Positions 10,030-51,251 of a stretch of 64,000 nucleotides of DNA are shown in pieces. Source of the DNA: a virus (taxonomy: Duplodnaviria; Heunggongvirae; Uroviricota; Caudoviricetes); the IMG/VR virus record IMGVR_UViG_3300033074_002207; one strand, given 5' to 3'. The translations under genes and the position numbers were made by a program. How positions within the stretch are numbered: the first letter of the stretch is position 1; the number at the start of each line of letters is the position of its first letter. The notes below the pieces were generated by a model. That model had not been told where the DNA came from. It saw only the letters and a program-made list of their open reading frames with translations, and did not search any database.

Positions 10030-10089
10030 ATGATTCGAGATATCAGCAAGGTTTTGCTAGTTGAAGGTAATATGGCATATATGTTCTAA
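10030..10089 (+). pseudogene. Orphaned 5' end of the exonuclease gene
   Basis: MIRDISKVLLVEGNMAYMF* versus MIRDITKVLCLD at 10940. Confidence 0.75.
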
Positions 10090-10107: not shown

Positions 10108-10947
10108 ATGAAAACTAAAGAAATTACCTCCGAAATACGCTCGTTTGTCTTGTCAGAATACCAAAGGGGTGTTGGCACATGTGAGATTGCGGCACAGCTT
10201 GGTGTAAAGCGATGGGTACCCTGGCGGGTTTTATCACAGGCTGGTGTAAAAATGCGCCGCAAATCCGTTTATAAGAAAAAATATAACCAACAATTTTTCG
10301 ACACATACACTCCTGAGTCGGCATATTGGGCTGGTTTTATTTTGGCTGACGGAAATATAACTAGAGATTCTAGCTTGTTACAGATATCTTTAAGCCAAGT
10401 TGACGAGTTTCATCTGCTTAAATTTTGCCAAGCGATTGAGCTGGAAAGCAAATTGACCAAAGATAATGATTGCGTCAGGATGTCGGTGAGTGGCAAGCAT
10501 ATATGCAAAAGTTTAGCTGCTAATTTTGGGGTTCATCCTCGAAAAAGTAATATATGTGTTTTTCCAGAGCAAATTCCAGAATATTTGTGGTCGCATTTTA
10601 TTCGCGGCATATTTGACGGCGATGGAAGCGTAACGCATGGCAGCTACGTTAACAAAAGCATGGAGCAGAAGCATAATATTATAATTAATTTTACAGGCTC
10701 TGTTGAGTTATTAAATTTCCTCAAAAGTTTCTTTCATGAACATATAAATATTGTGGTGAAGCGCTCTTCGATGACGGGGGTTCCACCAACACACATTGTT
10801 GGGAAAAACAAACAAACTGGACAAATAGCTTACAGCGGTATAAATGCTGTCGCAATATTAGATTGGCTTTATGCTGAGTCTGATGAGGCAACAAGACTAA
10901 ACAGGAAGTATGAAAAATTTCAACATTTAAAAGAGTATTATGATTAG
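10108..10947 (+). CDS. Free-standing LAGLIDADG homing endonuclease
   Basis: YWAGFILADGNI and HFIRGIFDGDGSV; N-terminal HTH. Confidence 0.9.
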   Translation: MKTKEITSEIRSFVLSEYQRGVGTCEIAAQLGVKRWVPWRVLSQAGVKMRRKSVYKKKYNQQFFDTYTPESAYWAGFILADGNITRDSSLLQISLSQVDEFHLLKFCQAIELESKLTKDNDCVRMSVSGKHICKSLAANFGVHPRKSNICVFPEQIPEYLWSHFIRGIFDGDGSVTHGSYVNKSMEQKHNIIINFTGSVELLNFLKSFFHEHINIVVKRSSMTGVPPTHIVGKNKQTGQIAYSGINAVAILDWLYAESDEATRLNRKYEKFQHLKEYYD

Positions 10948-11518
10948 AGACATTACAAAAGTTCTGTGCCTGGACACAGAGCACACATGTTATGAAAACG
11001 GAAATTTTCCGCATGGAGAGCAGTCAGACATCATTCAAATTGGATGGTGTTGGTTGCTGTTGCCCTCGCTAGAGATTACCAAGCCGCAGATGTTATATGT
11101 TCGCCCCACAAGGTCACGCATCAGTGATTATTGTGTTGAACTCACAGGCATCACCCACAAGCAGGTAATGTCTGCGCCACCACTTGCACACGTTTGTCAG
11201 ACGCTTATTAACAAGCATGGCACACGCGCTCGACCGTGGATGACATGGGGATATGATATTGAGGGGCTAAAGGCTGAATGCGAGGCATTTGGCGCAACGT
11301 TCCCATTTTCAGAATCATATATCAATGCTCAGGACATGGCTTCTATTTTGCTCGGACTACCGTTGCGAATGGGATTAGACGCAACACTTCGTCTAATGGA
11401 CATGTCATTTATAGGCAATCATCACCAAGCACCAGATGACGCTTATAACTTGGCACGAATTGTGCAAAAGTGTTGCACACCAACCACAGAAAGATACGAT
11501 TATAAGAGGATAGGATAA
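10940..11518 (+). CDS. DEDDh 3'-5' exonuclease (KapD/ERI-1-like)
   Basis: CLDTEHTC, IIQIG, LTGITH, HHQAPDDAYN. Confidence 0.88.
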   Translation: MIRDITKVLCLDTEHTCYENGNFPHGEQSDIIQIGWCWLLLPSLEITKPQMLYVRPTRSRISDYCVELTGITHKQVMSAPPLAHVCQTLINKHGTRARPWMTWGYDIEGLKAECEAFGATFPFSESYINAQDMASILLGLPLRMGLDATLRLMDMSFIGNHHQAPDDAYNLARIVQKCCTPTTERYDYKRIG

Positions 11519-28446: not shown

Positions 28447-29445
28447 ATGTCATCACTCTTTGTAAAGGTTTGCAAGTTCGACCGCTTGCCACATCCAACA
28501 GCGGATGCTATGTTCATTGCCGTTCCAAACGGAACAAGCTGGCGATGTTGCTGTCGTTTTGACAGCTTTGAAAACGAAGATTTAGGTATTTATATCCCTG
28601 TGGACAGTCTTTTGCCTTATGAAATGGCGCGAGATATGAATTTGCCCAATCTTAAAGAGGGTGAACCATATCGCATTCGAACTATCCGCCTTCGTGGACA
28701 GCTTTCTCAGGGTCTTTTGATTCCCAATCGCGGCAGGTGGAGCGAGGGGGAAGATGTTGCTCAAACTCTTGGTATCACCAAGTATGTCGAGCCAGACCCG
28801 GACGACGAAAATTTGCGCGTCACACCAGCGGGGTTTGTTAAATACACTGATATTGAAAATATCATGAACTTTCCAAACGTCTTACAAGAAGGCGAAGAAG
28901 TTGTCATGACTGAAAAAATTCACGGCAAGACATTTCGTTGTGGATGGGTGAATGGCGAGTTTTGCACAGGAAGCGCGAGAACCACTTTCAAAGCCGAGGC
29001 TTCTACAAAGTGGATGGATGTTGCACACAAGCACAATCTGCCCGAAAAACTACGAGAATTCCCCGGTGTCATTGTATATGGCGAGTTGTTTGGCGCAGGA
29101 GTTCAGTCACTTCGTTATGGACTTGACAACGACTGGGATTTGCGCGTGTTTGACATCTATCTGTGTGACGAAGACCGATACGCCAACTTTGATGAAATGT
29201 TGGAATGGTGCGAGAAGTTCGGGTTGCCAACAGTGCCATTGCTTTATCGCGGTGCATTCTCTGCTGATACATTAGCTCAATGGACAACAGGAAGGTCTGC
29301 AACAGCCCTACGACTTGGTGGCGACCATATCACCGAGGGTGTCGTTGTTAAGCCAGCCACAGAACGATGGGACTTTGACAACGGTTTGGGACGAGTGATT
29401 TTGAAATCAATCAACCCAGATTATCTGTTAAAGAAACTTGATTAA
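28447..29445 (+). CDS. ATP-dependent RNA ligase, DRB0094 family
   Basis: PHPTAD, LRGQLSQGL, TEKIHG, YGELFG, VFDI, EGVVVK, KSINPDYL. Confidence 0.92.
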   Translation: MSSLFVKVCKFDRLPHPTADAMFIAVPNGTSWRCCCRFDSFENEDLGIYIPVDSLLPYEMARDMNLPNLKEGEPYRIRTIRLRGQLSQGLLIPNRGRWSEGEDVAQTLGITKYVEPDPDDENLRVTPAGFVKYTDIENIMNFPNVLQEGEEVVMTEKIHGKTFRCGWVNGEFCTGSARTTFKAEASTKWMDVAHKHNLPEKLREFPGVIVYGELFGAGVQSLRYGLDNDWDLRVFDIYLCDEDRYANFDEMLEWCEKFGLPTVPLLYRGAFSADTLAQWTTGRSATALRLGGDHITEGVVVKPATERWDFDNGLGRVILKSINPDYLLKKLD

Positions 29446-29458
29446 AGGAAAGCTAACA

Positions 29459-29833
29459 ATGCAAAACGAAAACAATAATATGAATATTCGTCTTGCATTG
29501 TTAGAAGTAGCCACTGAGCTTGACAACCACGGGCTGTCACGCGAATCAGATGTTATCGCCAGTGTGTTAAAATCTGTAGTGGCGCAGTTGGGCGGCGTGG
29601 ATGTACAGGATATCTTATCCATGCCAGACGCACAACAAATCGTACAAGACGCAAGAAATTGGGTGGAAGATTGTCAATGGGGCGAAGACCCAGAAGTCAT
29701 AGAAAGCTTGCCGGATGAAAACATTCTAAAAGGAGTAGATAGGCACTATGAAGGTGGTCTCGCTGCATTTTTGCAGGACAGAATCCCATACAAACCAGAA
29801 GAGCACACTCCAATGGAAGAATATCCGGTATAA
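29459..29833 (+). CDS. Hypothetical protein with A..LD..G...(E)xD module
   Basis: LEVATELDNHGLSRESDVIASVLKSVVAQ. Confidence 0.7.
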   Translation: MQNENNNMNIRLALLEVATELDNHGLSRESDVIASVLKSVVAQLGGVDVQDILSMPDAQQIVQDARNWVEDCQWGEDPEVIESLPDENILKGVDRHYEGGLAAFLQDRIPYKPEEHTPMEEYPV

Positions 29834-29840
29834 TAGAACT

Positions 29841-30245
29841 ATGAAATATACAATAACACTTATCTTAGCGTGCGCGTTGTCTACCACAGCTTTTGCACAG
29901 TTGCGAAAAGATAACGTTTTAGACTTAAACTACAATGCGAGTTTTAAGGATTCTTTTAGCCTGCGATGGTCTTCTCGTATTGCCGAGAGTCAAGATTGGA
30001 CTCTTAAGGGTTTCAATGCTGGCGGTGCATACTCTTTGAACAAAGGACCAACTCGCCTTGCGGTCACATACGACTTGATGCGTGGCTATAACGATGGTGC
30101 AGAAATTGGTCATAGATACGGACTGTCTTTTTCAACCAATGCACCAAACATGAATCTTGCGTTTTCACTATTCAAGAGTGACGGTATGATGAACCAAATG
30201 AATGGTTTTTCTGGACGCTTAGATTTAAATATGAAATTCAAGTAG
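29841..30245 (+). CDS. Secreted beta-rich protein, possible small outer-membrane protein
   Basis: Signal peptide (AFA/Q); alternating beta pattern; C-terminal LNMKFK. Confidence 0.6.
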   Translation: MKYTITLILACALSTTAFAQLRKDNVLDLNYNASFKDSFSLRWSSRIAESQDWTLKGFNAGGAYSLNKGPTRLAVTYDLMRGYNDGAEIGHRYGLSFSTNAPNMNLAFSLFKSDGMMNQMNGFSGRLDLNMKFK

Positions 30246-30310
30246 GACGTTCGAACTACCATAAAGCATTTTGGCGTTTTGTGGGTAATAATAAGGGTGT
30301 GAGGTGAAAA

Positions 30311-30691
30311 ATGTTGACCACAACACCCTTATTGTTGTTTGCAGTCCCCTTTTTAGTATGGGGGCTCGTCGCCCACCTAGTTGCCGACTGGTTGTTCCAA
30401 AACACCTGGCAGGCACAATACAAACGCGATTGGAGACACCCCGCCGCCTGGGTGCATTCGGGAATCCACACGTTTCTCTACCTGTTCATTTTTCCTTGGT
30501 ATGTAGCTATCGCACTAGGCGTCATTCATATGATGATTGACACAAGAAAGCCGCTGCTATGGTGGGAAAAATATGTGAAACAAACCCATGATGGTGAAAT
30601 TGCTATGCACATCACCATTTGGCGCGACCAAGTGTTACATATTGCTTTTCTAGCAATCGCAGCACTTGTTTCAGGAATAATCCTCATTTAA
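30311..30691 (+). CDS. DUF3307-like membrane protein
   Basis: HLVADWLFQ..WQA..K, HSGIH, H..ID, DQVLH. Confidence 0.8.
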   Translation: MLTTTPLLLFAVPFLVWGLVAHLVADWLFQNTWQAQYKRDWRHPAAWVHSGIHTFLYLFIFPWYVAIALGVIHMMIDTRKPLLWWEKYVKQTHDGEIAMHITIWRDQVLHIAFLAIAALVSGIILI

Positions 30692-30716
30692 AGCCCAGAC
30701 GCTGTATATAATCAAG

Positions 30717-31091
30717 ATGTCTCAGGCATTAGGAACACATATCATTCTCGATTTATACGGATGTAACCCGGACGTGATGTTGCACGTTCCTACAGTCCAG
30801 TCTATCATGAGGAGCGCCGCTGAAGAAGCACAGTTCACGATTGTCACGGAAGAATACCACCAATTTGAACCACACGGGGTCAGCGGCGCAACAATCATCC
30901 AAGAGAGCCATTTGTGTTTGCATTCTTGGCCTGAATATAAATTCGTCTCTATTGACATTTATTATTGTGGTGAAAACGACCTGGTGGAACAAGCAATTAG
31001 CTTTTTAATCAAGAATTTTAAACCAGAGTTTATTGAGCGAAAAGATTCACCAAGGGGTATTCCAGAAATGTATAATAAATTTCTGAAATAA
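30717..31091 (+). CDS. speD: S-adenosylmethionine decarboxylase proenzyme
   Basis: GTHIILDLYGC, HQFEPHGVSG, QESHLCLHSWPE, IDIYYCG. Confidence 0.95.
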   Translation: MSQALGTHIILDLYGCNPDVMLHVPTVQSIMRSAAEEAQFTIVTEEYHQFEPHGVSGATIIQESHLCLHSWPEYKFVSIDIYYCGENDLVEQAISFLIKNFKPEFIERKDSPRGIPEMYNKFLK

Positions 31092-31128
31092 TGCAGGAAT
31101 GTCACCTAGCTTTACATAAAGTGTTTAT

Positions 31129-32025
31129 GTGGCTAAGACAATTTTTACCCCCGAACAAGATGAAATGCTTAAACAACTGTATCCTGTCATGGGAACAGAT
31201 GTCGTTGTTTTTTTACCTTTTACTCGAAAACACATTTCCACAAGAGCTTATGGGCTGGGGTTAAGAGTATGCAAAGAATCTAAAAGTAAAAAAGCTGCAA
31301 TTTTTGCATCACGCCCTCGACCGGATTTGTGTGGTGTTGATTCAAATTTATTTACTAATATACACTCGCCAGAAATAGCATATTTATTGGGTATGATTTG
31401 GGCAGACGGTTATGTAGACAAAAAATCATTTCGAATTATGCTTTCTATTTCAGAAAATGATGCTAACCAAATCGAGTCTGTTGTTTCCCGTACAGGAAAG
31501 TGGAGCATTCGCACCTGGCAGCCTCCGGGTAAAAGGAAACCCCAAAAAAGTTTTACTATCTCCAATAAAGTGATACATCATTTTTTATCCGAAAATGATT
31601 ATCAATCTAAAAGTGTATCATCCGCGTGTAAAATTTTAAATTGCATCCCCGAACAATTGCAGCATTATTTTTGGCGCGGTTATTTTGACGGCGATGGTTG
31701 TATTAGTAATCGCTTGCGTCATGGAGGGCATTCGTCACAAATGTCTTTATCTGGCTCCTTTAATCAAGATTGGACGTTTGTTAGCAAGCTTTTTGCAACA
31801 TTAAATATTGAGATGAAAATACAAAAACAAGAAGCTAAGCATAGATATTCTCGCGTAGTGGTTTATAACATGAATGACATCAACACCTTCTTTGAATACA
31901 TATATCCCGAGAAAAAATATGATGGTATTGGGTTAGAGAGAAAATATGGTAAATGGATAGAAATGCTTCACAATAGTTCTCAATCGAGATATTCTACGAT
32001 TAAAGCATTATCTCAACTGGGCTGA
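31129..32025 (+). CDS. Free-standing LAGLIDADG homing endonuclease
   Basis: YLLGMIWADGYV and FWRGYFDGDGCI. Confidence 0.9.
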   Translation: MAKTIFTPEQDEMLKQLYPVMGTDVVVFLPFTRKHISTRAYGLGLRVCKESKSKKAAIFASRPRPDLCGVDSNLFTNIHSPEIAYLLGMIWADGYVDKKSFRIMLSISENDANQIESVVSRTGKWSIRTWQPPGKRKPQKSFTISNKVIHHFLSENDYQSKSVSSACKILNCIPEQLQHYFWRGYFDGDGCISNRLRHGGHSSQMSLSGSFNQDWTFVSKLFATLNIEMKIQKQEAKHRYSRVVVYNMNDINTFFEYIYPEKKYDGIGLERKYGKWIEMLHNSSQSRYSTIKALSQLG

Positions 32026-32176
32026 GCATAAATACGCCTCGATTGATGTGTTTTATTGTGGTGAAAACCTGCATGCACAAAAGTGTATCGACCACCTAAT
32101 CAAAGCATTTGAAGCAACACATTATGAAATTGCAACTATTGCTCGCGGTTTGAAAAACACATACGAGCGTTTCTGA
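32015..32176 (+). pseudogene. speD: Orphaned 3' half of a speD allele
   Basis: NWAEHKYASIDVFYCGENLHAQKCIDHLIKAF...ARG aligns with SWPEYKFVSIDIYYCGENDLVEQAISFLIKNF...PRG. Confidence 0.85.
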
Positions 32177-32211
32177 GAGGATTAAGCCATGCTTTCTTGT
32201 AAAAGAAGAGT

Positions 32212-32613
32212 ATGAATACTCTTAAACGATTAGCACGTCTAGCAAACGATTTAGACGATATGGGTATGTACAATGAGGCTGATGCTATTACTGGTGTCGT
32301 CCAGCGAGTTGCACAACAAACACCACCAGAACTGTTGAACATGGATGCTCGAAGCTCGACACATGGAAACTATGACCTTACAGCTTGGCGACAAGCCTTT
32401 ATGGATAAGTATAACAAATTCAATCAAATGGTGAGCATTGCCAAGGATGACCAAACACCTATGGATGCCATCAATCCTGCTGGTATTCAATCTCTTTACA
32501 ACGAAATGTTGTATATTGCTGGTAACTATCTTTCAACCGACCCAGCAATTTTCAATCTTATGAAAAATGTAGTGCTTGAATATAAAGGAATTTTTGAAAA
32601 CGGAGCAGTATAA
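32212..32613 (+). CDS. Hypothetical protein with A..LD..G...EAD module
   Basis: LARLANDLDDMGMYNEADAITGVVQRVAQ. Confidence 0.75.
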   Translation: MNTLKRLARLANDLDDMGMYNEADAITGVVQRVAQQTPPELLNMDARSSTHGNYDLTAWRQAFMDKYNKFNQMVSIAKDDQTPMDAINPAGIQSLYNEMLYIAGNYLSTDPAIFNLMKNVVLEYKGIFENGAV

Positions 32614-32619
32614 AATATC

Positions 32620-32847
32620 ATGTGGAACTTATTCATCATTTTCCTCAAAAACATATTCAGTCGTCATAATTACACTGTCGAGCCGCGAGTTGAAATCAGC
32701 GATACGCCTGTTGAAAATCCGGTAGTGACTGTAGTGGTTGGTAATAAACGTTTGATGTTGTCTACTGCACAAGCTAGAAAGCTTTTTGGTGTGCTAGGAC
32801 AACATTTGGAGCGTTTAACTCCAGACCCGAAGGAATATCGCCCATAA
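32620..32847 (+). CDS. Hypothetical protein
   Basis: 75-aa ORF in the gene run. Confidence 0.55.
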   Translation: MWNLFIIFLKNIFSRHNYTVEPRVEISDTPVENPVVTVVVGNKRLMLSTAQARKLFGVLGQHLERLTPDPKEYRP

Positions 32848-32883
32848 ATAGCTTTTTTCACACAAAAAACGTGAAAACGGGGC

Positions 32884-32916
32884 AGAAATGGGACATAATG
32901 ATTATGTCCCATTTCT
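32884..32916. repeat. Perfect 16-bp inverted repeat with 1-nt spacer (operator or terminator)
   Basis: AGAAATGGGACATAAT-G-ATTATGTCCCATTTCT. Confidence 0.85.
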
Positions 32917-32959
32917 TTTAAGCTAGGAGAGAAAATACAATGCGCAGAGGTAGAAACAA

Positions 32960-33430
32960 ATGTCAGAGTTCAGAGAAATCAACCGACCCTCCTACGAAGA
33001 GTCTGCGCAAGAGCAACAAGAGAAACTGACATTTGGACAGAAAGTCTCTGATTGGGTGGCAAAATTTGGCGGAAGCTGGCCGTTTGTCATCACCTTTGTC
33101 CTAGTGCTGTTAGCCTGGATGTTTTTTAACACATTCAGCTATTTTAAGCTGTATCAGTTTGACAAGCCGCCATTTGTCCTGCTTAATCTTGTACTATCAA
33201 CCATTGCCGCGATTCAAGCACCCATCATTATGATGAGTCAAAATCGACAAGCAGACAAAGATAGGCAACACTTGCAGGAAGATAGAGAAGTTAATCGTCA
33301 AGCAGAACTCGAAATCCGCAATTTGAAACGACAGTTGACGGAAGTACAAAAAACGCTAGAAGAAGAGCGCAGGGCGAGAGAACAACAAAGCAAGCTGCTG
33401 CAAGAAATTAGAAATCACTTAAAGAAGTGA
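32960..33430 (+). CDS. DUF1003-like membrane protein
   Basis: FGGSWPFV, FD.PPFVLLNLVLS..AAIQAPIIMMSQNRQ. Confidence 0.9.
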   Translation: MSEFREINRPSYEESAQEQQEKLTFGQKVSDWVAKFGGSWPFVITFVLVLLAWMFFNTFSYFKLYQFDKPPFVLLNLVLSTIAAIQAPIIMMSQNRQADKDRQHLQEDREVNRQAELEIRNLKRQLTEVQKTLEEERRAREQQSKLLQEIRNHLKK

Positions 33431-34294
33431 CTTCCATTTTTTAATGTAGTCTATAATGTCTGTTTGAGGTTGCCATCCAAATTCCTCAAACATTTTATGT
33501 GGGAGTGCAAGTCCTGATTTGCGCTCCCCTTTCTTTTCTGGGATTAATTCGATTGGATGGTCGAACGCCTCGGCAATCTCAAGCAGCGTGTAATTTTTAC
33601 CCGTGCCAATCATATAACCATCCCCACTACCGCGCTCGCCAACCATTATTAATCCGCGCACGATATCATCTATGTGTGTAAAATCTCGTGTCTGAGTGCC
33701 AGGTGCCACAACTGTTAACGGTTTGCCGCTCCTGTACTGCTCTTGAAAAATACCAATCACAGTCGCCATTTTTCCTGTGCTGATTTGTCCCTCTCCATAG
33801 ACATTATAGAAATATGTAACAGCATAATCTAATCCATACCAGTTGTGATAGTTCTTGATAAGCTCGATGTTTTTTGCCTTGAACCATGCATAAGGAGATA
33901 GATGTTCGTTGTTGTTATCACCGAATTTTGATGAGCTTCCTGCATATATGAGCTTTGCAGACTTTTCTCGGCAATATTCTAAAATGTTGAATGTGCCTGT
34001 GGCATTAAAGTTTTGACATATTTTGATGTCGTCAAACGATGTGGTAATTCTTGAATACTCGCCCAAATGATAAACAACGTCTGGGCAGAATTTCAACACC
34101 TGGTCCGAATAATGTAACTGCGCGGTGTCGCAGTAGACATACTCAACATTCTCAGCGCGGATTTGTTTTTCTGGGCTGCTTGCATAATAGTTGTCAATAG
34201 ACATAATAATAGTATCTGGGTTGCGAGACAGTTCTTTAACAAGATTGCTGCCGACAAATCCGCAGCCGCCAGTTACTAAAATTCTATTTGACAT
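33419..34294 (-). CDS. NAD-dependent epimerase/dehydratase
   Basis: VTGGCGFVGS, YAGSSS, YAWFK (YxxxK), YNVYG, RDFTHIDD. Confidence 0.93.
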   Translation of the reverse strand: MSNRILVTGGCGFVGSNLVKELSRNPDTIIMSIDNYYASSPEKQIRAENVEYVYCDTAQLHYSDQVLKFCPDVVYHLGEYSRITTSFDDIKICQNFNATGTFNILEYCREKSAKLIYAGSSSKFGDNNNEHLSPYAWFKAKNIELIKNYHNWYGLDYAVTYFYNVYGEGQISTGKMATVIGIFQEQYRSGKPLTVVAPGTQTRDFTHIDDIVRGLIMVGERGSGDGYMIGTGKNYTLLEIAEAFDHPIELIPEKKGERKSGLALPHKMFEEFGWQPQTDIIDYIKKWKSLL

Positions 34295-34304
34295 ATAGCC
34301 CCTT

Positions 34305-36092
34305 TTATTTGTACCAATTTACGCGACGTTTTGAATATTTCCATCCACCTTCATCAAAAACACTTTCGTCAGGTTTGCCGTTCGGCAAGGTTGGATAATC
34401 CATTGTGGTAAAATCGTGTTTATGCTTCATTAATCTTGGTTGAAGTTGCTCCATGAGCCTTTGGCTCCACACACCTGTGTAACCGCCAGATGAGTAAGCG
34501 TCCACCATGTGATATAGGTGGCTTTCTGGCAATCCAGTTACCCTTGCATACTCTTGTGCTATCTTTGGTAGCTCGGGGGTAATTTCTTGTAATGTCATGT
34601 AGTACAAAAGAAAATCATTATCTTCGTTTGCTAACGCTTTTGCGTCTGGATGACCAGTTCCATCTTGTAACTCTGGATAATTTGATGCTGCCTCGGTGAG
34701 TTTCTCCTCATACTTATTTACAATGTCTAAAACACCCAATTTGTTTAATACCCATCTGAAATTAAAAGTTTTGGTTTGCTCATCATAAATATTGTGTTCA
34801 GATTTCTGTTGTTTATACTCGTCAGGATTTTCTGCAATATGTTTCAAAAGTTGTACATCGTGGTCAACAATAACACTTCCTAAAGCCTGCGTAATTTCTG
34901 AGCCGTCATCATTATCTGCAAGCCTATCCCATCCGCCAAGCCCTCCCCTTGTTCCATTCATGTTTGTTTCTACTTGCCACAGAAGATTGTTTATATCCAG
35001 TTCTTTAATATCTCTTGATTCATCGTCTGCTTCAACCGGAATGCCATAATCACTGTGCCTATCTCCAGTAGAATAATCGACCTCATCATTATCTCGCCCG
35101 TAAGCCTCTTCATAGATTGCCCACTTAATAGTATCAGGATATGTGTCCCAATGAACTTCTGTGTTGTCAGTCTTTACACCGGGAAATCTGGCGTCTTCTA
35201 ATGTGGCAAACCATTCTCCAATTTTCTTTCTTATTTCTTTACCAGGCTTTGCATTGTTTTTTGCCTTAATTTGATGAACAACATTTTCTGCACCGCCTAA
35301 TTCAATTGTAGCCACTGGTTCGTTTCTTGGATTTCTCAGTGAAAAAATACGTAAATCTCCTGCCTCAACATCTGAACAATAACTACCAACACAATGGTTC
35401 ATTCGATTACCCTCAACTGATAAATCATTTTTGTTGGTAACTTGTGAAATATGCCATCCATCTGGATATGTATAAACAACACGCTCGTCTTCTAAATCCC
35501 CAAACTCATTGCGCTTGTAAGGCGTATAAGTCAAATTACTTCCCTGACCAGCCATAGCAATGTGCCAGTCTTTAGCCCGCTCTATTGCTTGTTGTAAGTT
35601 GAAGGTTGATAACTGGAAATATGGGTCTTCTCGCGCTGCATGTTTAGCCCAGTCAGCAATTTCTTGAAAGGTATTTTGAAGATTCCATCCCTGGTCTTCT
35701 TCATTACCACCGTCAAAGCCACGGTATGTATATCCCTTTGGTGTTTTTTGCAACCTGAGTTTTCTTAATTGAACCTGTGGCCATAGCTGCATAGTTTCTG
35801 GAAATAAATCAATAATTTGTTGCTCAGCCATACTCGGCGCATTATTTCTCTGCAACTGCTCAGTTCGCATACGCGCATTTAAATTAGAGTCGTATATATG
35901 TCCCTGAATATCCTGAAGCGAGGCAGATGGATTACCCTTAAGGTAATTAATCGCCATTCCCTTATCAGCGCCCTGTTGCTGCACCAAATAGGCAATTGTT
36001 TCTTCTGGTATACCTTGCGCCCGAAAATCAGCCACCATCTCATCAAAGGTCGCGGCAAAAATTTCTTTATATGGCAAGGCTGAATACCACAT
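34305..36092 (-). CDS. Large PcfJ-like domain protein
   Basis: DLSVEGNRMNHCVGSY, IFSLR, ATIEL, QIKAKNN; start placed at ATG 36092. Confidence 0.75.
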   Translation of the reverse strand: MWYSALPYKEIFAATFDEMVADFRAQGIPEETIAYLVQQQGADKGMAINYLKGNPSASLQDIQGHIYDSNLNARMRTEQLQRNNAPSMAEQQIIDLFPETMQLWPQVQLRKLRLQKTPKGYTYRGFDGGNEEDQGWNLQNTFQEIADWAKHAAREDPYFQLSTFNLQQAIERAKDWHIAMAGQGSNLTYTPYKRNEFGDLEDERVVYTYPDGWHISQVTNKNDLSVEGNRMNHCVGSYCSDVEAGDLRIFSLRNPRNEPVATIELGGAENVVHQIKAKNNAKPGKEIRKKIGEWFATLEDARFPGVKTDNTEVHWDTYPDTIKWAIYEEAYGRDNDEVDYSTGDRHSDYGIPVEADDESRDIKELDINNLLWQVETNMNGTRGGLGGWDRLADNDDGSEITQALGSVIVDHDVQLLKHIAENPDEYKQQKSEHNIYDEQTKTFNFRWVLNKLGVLDIVNKYEEKLTEAASNYPELQDGTGHPDAKALANEDNDFLLYYMTLQEITPELPKIAQEYARVTGLPESHLYHMVDAYSSGGYTGVWSQRLMEQLQPRLMKHKHDFTTMDYPTLPNGKPDESVFDEGGWKYSKRRVNWYK

Positions 36093-36235
36093 TGTAGTTT
36101 TATTGGGCTTTTTATAAAAGTTTTCCTGTGTTTGCAGGCTCCTAAAATGGGATGTCGTCCAGTGATTTTTGACGGAGAAGAGGATTAATAAGCGAATTTG
36201 TGCCATCTTCCCAAAAGATGTACTATAATAGAGAT

Positions 36236-37021
36236 ATGTTTGAAATCGCAGAGCGTTTTCGTGAACAATTGATGTTTGTTAACACTGCAAATAATTTGCG
36301 GGTTTTCTGGGTGTCTGTGACAAATGACAAAGAGAGCGACTTGGTGTTCTATTCTTTGATAACACAAGAACACGGAAAAAATGTGGCAACAAAGATTGAT
36401 AACATTGAAGATTGGTTAATCACAACGCCCGTTACACCTGTTAACTGGAAAACCAGTGAGTTTGTAGAAAACATCGCCCCCACTACCACGTATCACTTGT
36501 TTGAAACCTGTATCGGACCGCTTGAACAAGTGTTGGCACGATTTACTTTTGATGGTAATAAAGAGGTGCCAGCAAATCACTGGGAAGTGGTGTATGAAAA
36601 CAACCAATATGGAACGCAAGAAGTTCAATTCGTTGAAGATGACTTCTTTAAGACGAGTTTCACCCCAGCAGATGCGCTCAGTAAAAAATACGCCGAATTT
36701 ATCACAAGTGTTGTTTTCAGACCTTCGGTTTTAGCTCTTCCAACACTCTCAGAGGAACTTGTTGAAAACGAACTTCGATTGCCATGCGATTGCTATACGC
36801 ACGAGCTTTCAGTGCTGTACGATGAAGAAACTGACATGTTTGAACTGGCTTATTGGCAGCGCGGCAGAGGTGAGCAACCCTGGTCATGGAAGACTCGCTT
36901 CAAGATGATATGGGATATTCTTACAACTGGCAATCCATATTCAGACATGATAATTCTTAAGCGAAAAAACATGTATAAATTACATGACTACATCGAGGGA
37001 TTTATGCGAAATGCCAAGTGA
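36236..37021 (+). CDS. Hypothetical protein
   Basis: TATAAT 6 nt before ATG 36236. Confidence 0.7.
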   Translation: MFEIAERFREQLMFVNTANNLRVFWVSVTNDKESDLVFYSLITQEHGKNVATKIDNIEDWLITTPVTPVNWKTSEFVENIAPTTTYHLFETCIGPLEQVLARFTFDGNKEVPANHWEVVYENNQYGTQEVQFVEDDFFKTSFTPADALSKKYAEFITSVVFRPSVLALPTLSEELVENELRLPCDCYTHELSVLYDEETDMFELAYWQRGRGEQPWSWKTRFKMIWDILTTGNPYSDMIILKRKNMYKLHDYIEGFMRNAK

Positions 37022-50361: not shown

Positions 50362-51251
50362 TATTACTGGGATATAAGTGTAAGTCTTGAAAAATGTAGA
50401 AAATTGTCTAAAAGCTCTCTCAATACCAGTCTGAAAGAATATCTGAAGAAAGTCAGAGTCAGTATGATGAAAATGATTTTCAGACTTCGTTGAACCTGGG
50501 CTTTAGGCGAAGTCGAGAAGTGGTAGGGAAAGTCGAGAGAGAAAAGATGATGCCCCACCACTGAGAAGCCTGTTGGAGAGTAGGCTAAGGAGAATCAAGG
50601 AATAGTTTACTCAAGTGGATGGGGCTTATTTGTGAGCAGAGATGGAGGAAATAACATCGGTGCTACCACTAGATAATAACGAAGAAAAGATTTGCCAAAC
50701 TTCAGAACTATCTATTATAGAGTTCTGCAATTTTGAATCTGCGTCCTGCTTTTGGGAGACTTTTTTGAAGATTATTTCGTCTGGCTGGAAGAGGGGTGGT
50801 GGAGAGGCGTCCCATCTTCATCCCATGATTTGCCCAGTCTTATCCCATGTCAATCCCTATTTTAGATTTTCGTGTCAACAGGGAATAATTTTGATGTTTA
50901 TTTATGTAGGGTGGAAAAGGATTCCTACATGATGTTAAAAGGCTTCTCGGCGCGGAAAAATGCCCCAAAAAGCGTGATGACAAGAATTTCGAAAGGGGCT
51001 GGGGTTCGGCTGGCGCGTTCGACCCGACCCTATTTCAAATTTTAGATATGAAAAATTTACATTTCGAGGCATAAAATCGAACCAATTTTGTTTGACCCTA
51101 TGGTGTTGCAATTAAATCGGCGCGGGGTATGAATTTAGGTTCGGAAATTTGCTTTTCTGAGAATTTTATGATATGGCGGGTAATTTTGAAAGGAAAAGTA
51201 GGGGATATGAGTAGTGCCCTGTAAATCTATTTATGTTGGGGAGTTACAACA
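50362..51251. other. Large non-coding region at a compositional switch; candidate replication origin
   Basis: No credible ORF; A/C-rich + strand upstream, G/T-rich downstream; phased repeats inside. Confidence 0.45.
50810..50860 (+). repeat. Five imperfect TCCCATG-like repeats at an exact 11-bp period
   Basis: TCCCATC 50810, TCCCATG 50821, GCCCAGT 50832, TCCCATG 50843, TCCCTAT 50854. Confidence 0.7.

Follow-up and report, generated by a model that had tools for sequence, protein, structure and literature searches.

The stretch of DNA analyzed here, 64,000 nucleotides from a virus of the Caudoviricetes (referred to as the window), raises the question of why a complete speD-family gene is followed, on the far side of a LAGLIDADG homing endonuclease gene, by a second and different version of its own 3′ end. 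It should be noted that speD is used as a family name (AdoMetDC/SpeD class 1 pyruvoyl decarboxylases, PF02675) and does not imply a substrate; two reports indicate that phage SpeD homologues may act as ornithine or arginine decarboxylases (PMC10407285, PMC9992855). The comparisons described here indicate that a LAGLIDADG homing-endonuclease cassette has very probably converted the 3′ part of the speD-family gene of a giant phage.

The intact gene extends from 30717 to 31091 and encodes 124 residues. In a profile search it matches PF02675 over the complete domain (profile positions 1–107 of 107, E 2e-34), which bears out the description, in an earlier note on this DNA, of a complete speD ahead of the endonuclease, and in an alignment with relatives Glu63 and Ser64, the Glu-Ser self-processing site, are conserved. 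The gene is a chimera of a native front and a foreign back half (Table 1). The window protein is identical to that of a relative, P0006, over residues 1–57, after which P0006 switches to a sequence resembling the second speD end of the window (92%), and the identity of the current speD to the contig encoding P0006, L001, is 57% over codons 54–70 and 72% over codons 71–87. We take the second mismatch to L001, at 30875, to be the first foreign base. The foreign part contains the Glu63-Ser64 self-processing/pyruvoyl site and the whole α chain; it is in phase with the native 5′ part, and the PF02675 domain is unbroken across the junction.

Table 1. Features of the speD locus, with their positions in the window and the evidence on which each is based.
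Feature	Position	Strand	Evidence
Native speD 5′ part, codons 1–53	30717..30874	+	157/159 nt identical to L001 over 30717–30875
Foreign speD 3′ part, last base of codon 53 through codon 124 and stop	30875..31091	+	Drop in identity to L001; grouping with P0001/P0002
Whole foreign cassette (spare gene end, spacer copy and endonuclease without its own stop), ~1.14 kb	30875..32017	+	No counterpart in L001
Spacer ahead of the endonuclease, 37 nt, a diverged copy of the native speD-to-next-gene spacer	31092..31128	+	Shared motif
LAGLIDADG homing endonuclease, 298 codons, GTG start	31129..32025	+	PF14528 LAGLIDADG_3, E 2e-13
Stranded native speD 3′ end (remnant), codons 71–122 and stop TGA	32018..32176	+	Matches to L001 and PF02675

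The second speD end, referred to as the remnant, was recognized in an unannotated frame, 32015–32176, which matches profile positions 64–107 of PF02675 (the C-terminal 44; E 1e-10) and aligns without gaps with SpeD residues 70–122, with identity at 21 of 53 positions (40%, pairwise E 5e-15). The gapless but strongly diverged match to the C-terminal part of SpeD reported in the earlier note is thus confirmed, as is its 3′ boundary; the 5′ boundary given there needs correction, as the AAC at 32015–32017 is the end of the endonuclease and homology begins with the TGG at 32018. The remnant frame is the sole second speD-like stretch in the 64-kb window (tblastn E 5e-10), so that the match is far beyond chance. 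There is no start codon of its own at the remnant boundary, and the last 8 nt of the endonuclease, stop included, fall inside it, the stop TGA (32023–32025) being in a different frame. The two speD 3′ halves of the window have a DNA identity of ~60%, and the positions that they share are clustered in TGG..GAG..AAA and TATTGTGGTGAAAAC stretches.

About 20 SpeD relatives with identities of 58–99% were found by a protein search, among them P0006, whose metagenomic contig L001 carries a DUF3307 gene, speD, and the next gene, the endonuclease being absent. L001 aligns with window positions 29400–30977 and again from 32018 (to 32276); the upstream region, the DUF3307 gene, and speD codons 1–53 are 98.7–99.0% identical in the two, and past the remnant the spacer is 91% and the start of the next gene 97% identical. 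These segment identities show that the window is an L001-like genome in which the cassette has replaced native codons 54–70. The remnant corresponds to the 3′ half of the L001 speD in 141 of 159 nucleotides (88.7%) and 48 of 52 amino acids, a protein identity to P0006 of 92% as compared with 40% for the current end. The differing codons comprise 12 synonymous and 4 non-synonymous changes (dN/dS 0.05); the remnant was stranded recently, because nearly all of its divergence from L001 arose while both were working genes. However, it is 11% diverged from the L001 3′ half, as opposed to 1% for the left flank, which suggests either that L001 is not the exact recipient type or that the remnant travelled with the cassette.

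Separate comparisons of the three pieces, which the earlier note had proposed, give discordant partners. The 5′ part of speD groups with P0006; in a maximum-likelihood tree of 3′ halves the remnant also pairs with P0006 (support 99/87), whereas the current 3′ end pairs with P0001 (98/89) and P0002 (95/88). Together with the empty allele in L001, the trees support the view, advanced in the earlier note, that the inserted element brought a replacement 3′ half and stop. The contig of P0002, L003, lacks the endonuclease and matches the window at ~78% identity throughout, which indicates that an end of the same kind as the spare one exists as a normal allele in another lineage. Among the sequences sampled, which do not include the donor lineage, the closest endonuclease has 70% identity and the closest spare end 77%.

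The hybrid speD and the endonuclease are not continuous, being separated by a stop codon and the 37-nt spacer, and the endonuclease has its own start codon, GTG in the window and ATG in the related contigs L084 and L094. The spacer follows the pattern AGGAAT, 15 nt, ATAAA, 8 nt, GTG. The motif AGGAWT-N15-RTAAA is present in three copies in 64 kb as compared with 0.21 expected, at 31095–31120 before the endonuclease, at 32178–32203 before the next gene, and at 50926–50901 on the minus strand, the first two having the same 8-nt distance to the start codon; throughout the phage group it is conserved between speD and the next gene, and all endonuclease-bearing relatives keep it. The spacer copy indicates that the cassette consists of a donor speD end with its downstream expression signals, the endonuclease standing in place of the downstream gene. 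The motif may serve as a promoter or as an initiation signal, different from the other boxes of this genome; a scan of 30200–32700 for σ70 promoters and terminators gave nothing above shuffles.

The endonuclease contains two LAGLIDADG motifs in one chain, Trp91-Ala92-Asp93-Gly94 and Asp187-Gly188-Asp189-Gly190, which are invariant across 29 homologues and each have a catalytic acidic residue at the end, as in the monomeric double-motif type. A profile of the family matches I-MsoI (1.2e-4), a putative archaeal homing endonuclease (2dch), I-HjeMI, I-DmoI/I-CreI, and I-AniI, with E values from 1e-4 to 6e-3 for I-MsoI, I-HjeMI, I-DmoI, and I-AniI; a PDB search with the single sequence returned no match. 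Between this gene and its ~70% identical relatives, and among the four speD-associated copies as a whole, dN/dS is ~0.1, so that the endonuclease is under purifying selection, and because its catalytic motifs are also intact, it is probably active.

Syntenic contigs of four related lineages, L002, L084/L085/L086, L087, and L094/L095 (L084 type), carry the endonuclease; the three closest copies (L002, L084/L085/L086, and L087) are 70–72% identical to that of the window, the next being 43% identical, and in all four lineages the gene starts 38 nt behind speD. In the four related lineages the cassette is located at the 3′ end of speD and the endonuclease frame closes in flanking native sequence. 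A long remnant is absent from all of the endonuclease-bearing relatives, where only the last codon and stop are found; since their cassette is at the very end of speD, the long remnant is special to the window lineage. Relatives free of the endonuclease are L001, L003, L096, L186, L188, and L189–L191, and there is a presence/absence polymorphism at the locus both between the window and L001 (99% identical flanks) and between L084 and L189 (90–93%). In the latter pair, the sequences are homologous up to about codon 98 and again from the last codon and stop onward, placing the insertion at the very end of speD. L002 and L084 are ~95% identical on both sides of the cassette but 60–80% identical exactly from about codon 65 of speD to the endonuclease stop; because the drop is confined to the cassette, the spare end and endonuclease have been exchanged as a unit. 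In wider searches, a scan of metagenomes with the speD alignment yielded at least one relative, of 61% identity, among the matches listed; a DNA search against 50,697 phage records gave no match, and protein-pattern, alignment, and junction-word scans of IMG/VR gave only speD at ≤47% identity, with no relative of the endonuclease and no junction.

The left boundaries of the foreign tracts differ, being at codon ~53 for the window and L001, ~65 for L002 and L084 and for P0003 and P0008, and ~98 for L084 and L189, but all are at or behind the best-conserved DNA of speD. This variation, and the location of the crossovers in DNA where any recombination between diverged alleles would be favored, would be compatible with ordinary phage mosaicism, in which the foreign 3′ half and the endonuclease came in by general homologous or illegitimate recombination, with the endonuclease carried along passively and never cutting speD. 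However, the foreign tract adjoins the endonuclease in 5 of 5 endonuclease-bearing lineages and ends at its last sense codons in the comparisons of both the window with L001 and L002 with L084, and the endonuclease has intact catalytic motifs and evolves under purifying selection; we consider mosaicism improbable, though it is the strongest of the alternatives.

With regard to conversion by the endonuclease cassette, we infer cleavage, the position of cleavage, and the direction of events from these comparisons. The endonuclease would cut an endonuclease-free speD allele during co-infection and the break would be repaired from a cassette-bearing genome; the left crossover would resolve in the well-conserved central part of speD, which in this case means codon 53 or immediately before it, and the spare end would keep speD intact. 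In the window lineage, the right junction would have formed at codon 70/71 and not at the speD stop, stranding native codons 71–122 as a dead copy. A fixed cut site at the ES|H codons, which encode the self-processing site, was considered and dropped: L084, with the endonuclease, and L189, without it, are near-identical around codons 64–78, so that a mid-gene site cannot be the target of the L084-type enzyme. It is more likely, from the L084 and L189 sequences, that this enzyme targets the junction of the speD end and spacer, which its own insertion disrupts. For the window enzyme, codon 70/71 is the obvious candidate target, by position only. The proximity of junctions to the ES|H codons may partly reflect the resolution of crossovers in the best-conserved DNA of the gene.

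The right edge of the cassette is in every case formed by the last sense codons of the endonuclease. In L084 the endonuclease frame ends with ...AACC TGA followed by ATAACAGGGTGCGC, letter-identical to the speD end and spacer of L189, which indicates that the L084 endonuclease borrows the native last codon and stop. The edge in L002 is the same apart from a 2-nt deletion, whereas that of L087 has a 1-nt deletion and its endonuclease extends into the spacer by 12 codons. The homologous end in the window, ...CAAC, abuts the TGG of codon 71, and the frame closes 8 nt later. The edge …CAAC|TG is therefore joined to the speD stop TGA in the relatives and to the TGG of codon 71 in the window, and a single putative illegitimate event at the TG dinucleotide connects these states, whichever came first. 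A 9-mer, AGCATAAAT, is shared by speD codons 73–76 and the spacer that follows speD in L189-type sequences; it was rejected as a guide for the ectopic right junction, as the best local match was no better than that in 14% of shuffles, and is suggestive by position only.

The junction between the endonuclease and remnant is known from one assembly, and both allele types occur in metagenomes, so that strains with and without the endonuclease might have been misjoined to give an apparent remnant. At the junction, however, the overlap shared with alternative paths is at most 2 nt (TG), far below the word length of an assembler, and the lack of a long shared word makes such an error unlikely; the frame also closes 8 nt into the remnant in the way that related endonucleases close in native flanks. 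The left junction is confirmed independently by 16 contigs from several samples, which encode P0001, 99% identical to the chimeric SpeD of the window, and carry the chimeric speD with the first 45 endonuclease codons at 99% identity. An assembly chimera is, on this evidence, very improbable.

These sibling contigs are from the same phage type, being 99% identical over window positions 30325–31263 and 97% over 32193–36284, and show the endonuclease in decay. Beyond about codon 45 of the endonuclease, window positions 31264–32192, which hold what is left of that gene together with the remnant and 16 nt of spacer, are replaced in them (L097:989–6725, L098, L099–L104, and L105:1481–2170) by three genes on the reverse strand, of unknown family and encoding 407, 220, and 139 aa. 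In L097-type contigs, L097 and L098 among them, there is in addition a 3.3-kb IS607-like element at the joint, which encodes TnpB, a serine recombinase of the MerR-resolvase kind, and ORFs of 64 and 352 aa and is absent from L105.

The remnant is dispensable, because it is absent from the sibling genomes (L097/L098/L105). This bears on the possibility, scarcely more credible than the least of the alternatives, that the remnant is a separately expressed small gene (42 aa from the GTG at 32048) or a fragment that complements SpeD. The frame is open for 53 codons, has few non-synonymous changes (dN/dS 0.05), and contains the in-frame GTG at 32048, but the pyruvoyl serine and β chain are missing from it, there is neither a promoter-like nor a spacer motif ahead of it, the siblings that do without it are 97–99% identical to the window, and a database search for small ORFs homologous to it gave none; the low dN/dS is expected if the stranding was recent. 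Finally, an in-situ tandem duplication of the speD 3′ half, with later divergence and unrelated to the endonuclease, would account for two collinear copies of one gene segment 1.1 kb apart, but the ~60% DNA identity of the copies, as against 99% for the flanks relative to a one-copy genome, and their different nearest relatives contradict the recent tandem duplication considered in the earlier note and reduce the likelihood of this explanation to almost nothing.

Conversion of a gene end by an endonuclease cassette is of a kind already known from two sources, the mORF hybrids of fungal mitochondria and co-conversion by free-standing phage endonucleases. Hybrids of the first type have been described for atp6, atp9, cox2, and nad3 of Glomus sp., atp9 of Rhizopus oryzae, and cox2 of Mortierella (PMC3630166), and, as cited there, a hybrid of atp6 with an endonuclease ORF in Allomyces macrogynus (Paquin et al. 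1994). They share with the window an endonuclease in a coding gene with a foreign C-terminal piece in phase with the native 5′ part, and a native C terminus left downstream that is closer to the genes of relatives than is the inserted one; the identities of native and inserted ends are 92% versus 40% in the window and 91–98% versus 64–81% in Glomus (PMC3630166). Unlike the mORFs, the window cassette resides in a giant double-stranded DNA phage and not in a mitochondrion, its endonuclease has a frame of its own, preceded by a copied host spacer, and is not in phase, that frame takes its stop from the flank, and in relatives of the window the cassette is at the very end of the gene, with almost no remnant.

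Free-standing endonucleases of T4-like phages, including SegB, SegG, MobE, and others, carry out intronless homing with co-conversion of flanking markers (PMC2988022, PMC2790892, PMC2330249), and nuclease genes are found at recombination boundaries in phages (PMC10448857). These papers (PMC2988022, PMC2790892, PMC2330249, PMC10448857) describe no stranded duplicate gene end and no endonuclease frame that terminates in the target gene. Shared features are a stand-alone gene beside a conserved gene, its presence or absence among close relatives, sharp drops in identity adjoining the endonuclease, and co-conversion of flanking gene sequence; the enzymes described there are, however, of the GIY-YIG, HNH, or T5orf172 types, whereas that of the window is a LAGLIDADG enzyme. 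In T4, mobA and the bypass sequence of gene 60 reportedly form one mobile cassette (Bonocora et al. 2011). There the endonuclease likewise travels with an adjacent alteration of its target gene, which stays functional and is presumably shielded from cleavage by it, but the companion of mobA is reportedly a 50-nt translational bypass insert, in contrast to the whole replacement gene end in the window. In the literature that was searched, neither a phage cassette with a spare gene end nor an endonuclease linked to speD is described.

A more tentative reading, which we regard as possible but doubtful, is that the speD cassette is a phage counterpart of the mitochondrial mORFs that is able to shift its insertion register within one gene. 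If so, the stranded end would act as a right homology arm, the composite of spare α-chain end, spacer copy, endonuclease, and old end would spread as a unit, and the catalytic α chain of a pyruvoyl enzyme would be shuffled between phages as a side effect. The occurrence of ES-NCCF and ES-HLTL variants after the pyruvoyl serine suggests such shuffling of the α chain.

The locus is a clear natural example, from phage metagenomes, of a homing endonuclease that resides inside an enzyme gene with neither intron nor intein, by means of a spare gene end. Several stages are represented among the samples, from the empty site through cassettes that have either a long remnant or hardly any to an endonuclease in decay and overrun by other DNA. 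The LAGLIDADG enzyme is open to experiment, and candidate natural targets for it are available. Since speD genes with the cassette are chimeras, phylogenies based on the single gene will mislead, and for annotation it should be recognized that short unannotated gene ends beside endonuclease genes are recombination scars.

Several further observations concern speD itself. In P0003, P0004, P0005, P0011, and P0019, the residues after the pyruvoyl serine are ES-NC(C/S)F instead of ES-HL(T/C)L, a variant that is found both with the endonuclease (L002:2277–2666) and without it (L096:2573–2947) and may reflect a change in enzyme properties or in the nuclease target. In about 10 distant IMG/VR contigs (L009, L015, L018, L022, L024, L030, L033, L035, L054, and L063), the tblastn match to SpeD ends at residue ~86, and these may represent other interruptions of speD or divergence.

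Other sites are also associated with endonucleases. In one relative only, a gene for a GIY-YIG/NUMOD3 endonuclease is located just upstream of an RNA ligase gene (L094:1–659), another endonuclease whose presence varies in the phage group. The PcfJ-like gene on the minus strand of the window (34305–36206) encodes 633 aa, its counterparts in L097 and L098 595–612 aa, and those in L084, L189, and L191 774–946 aa, with faint LAGLIDADG_3 matches (L084:7989–8304, L189:5974–6375, and L191:3866–4267); the gene in these relatives may hold an intein or an in-frame endonuclease insertion. Elsewhere in the window, a 12-codon 5′ stub at 10030–10065, of which 8 of 12 residues are identical to the start of an exonuclease, is followed by a second LAGLIDADG gene (10108–10947), 24% identical to the speD-associated one, and then by a complete gene for the exonuclease, of the RNase_T family (10940–11518). 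This layout fits a putative mirror-image cassette with a spare 5′ end.
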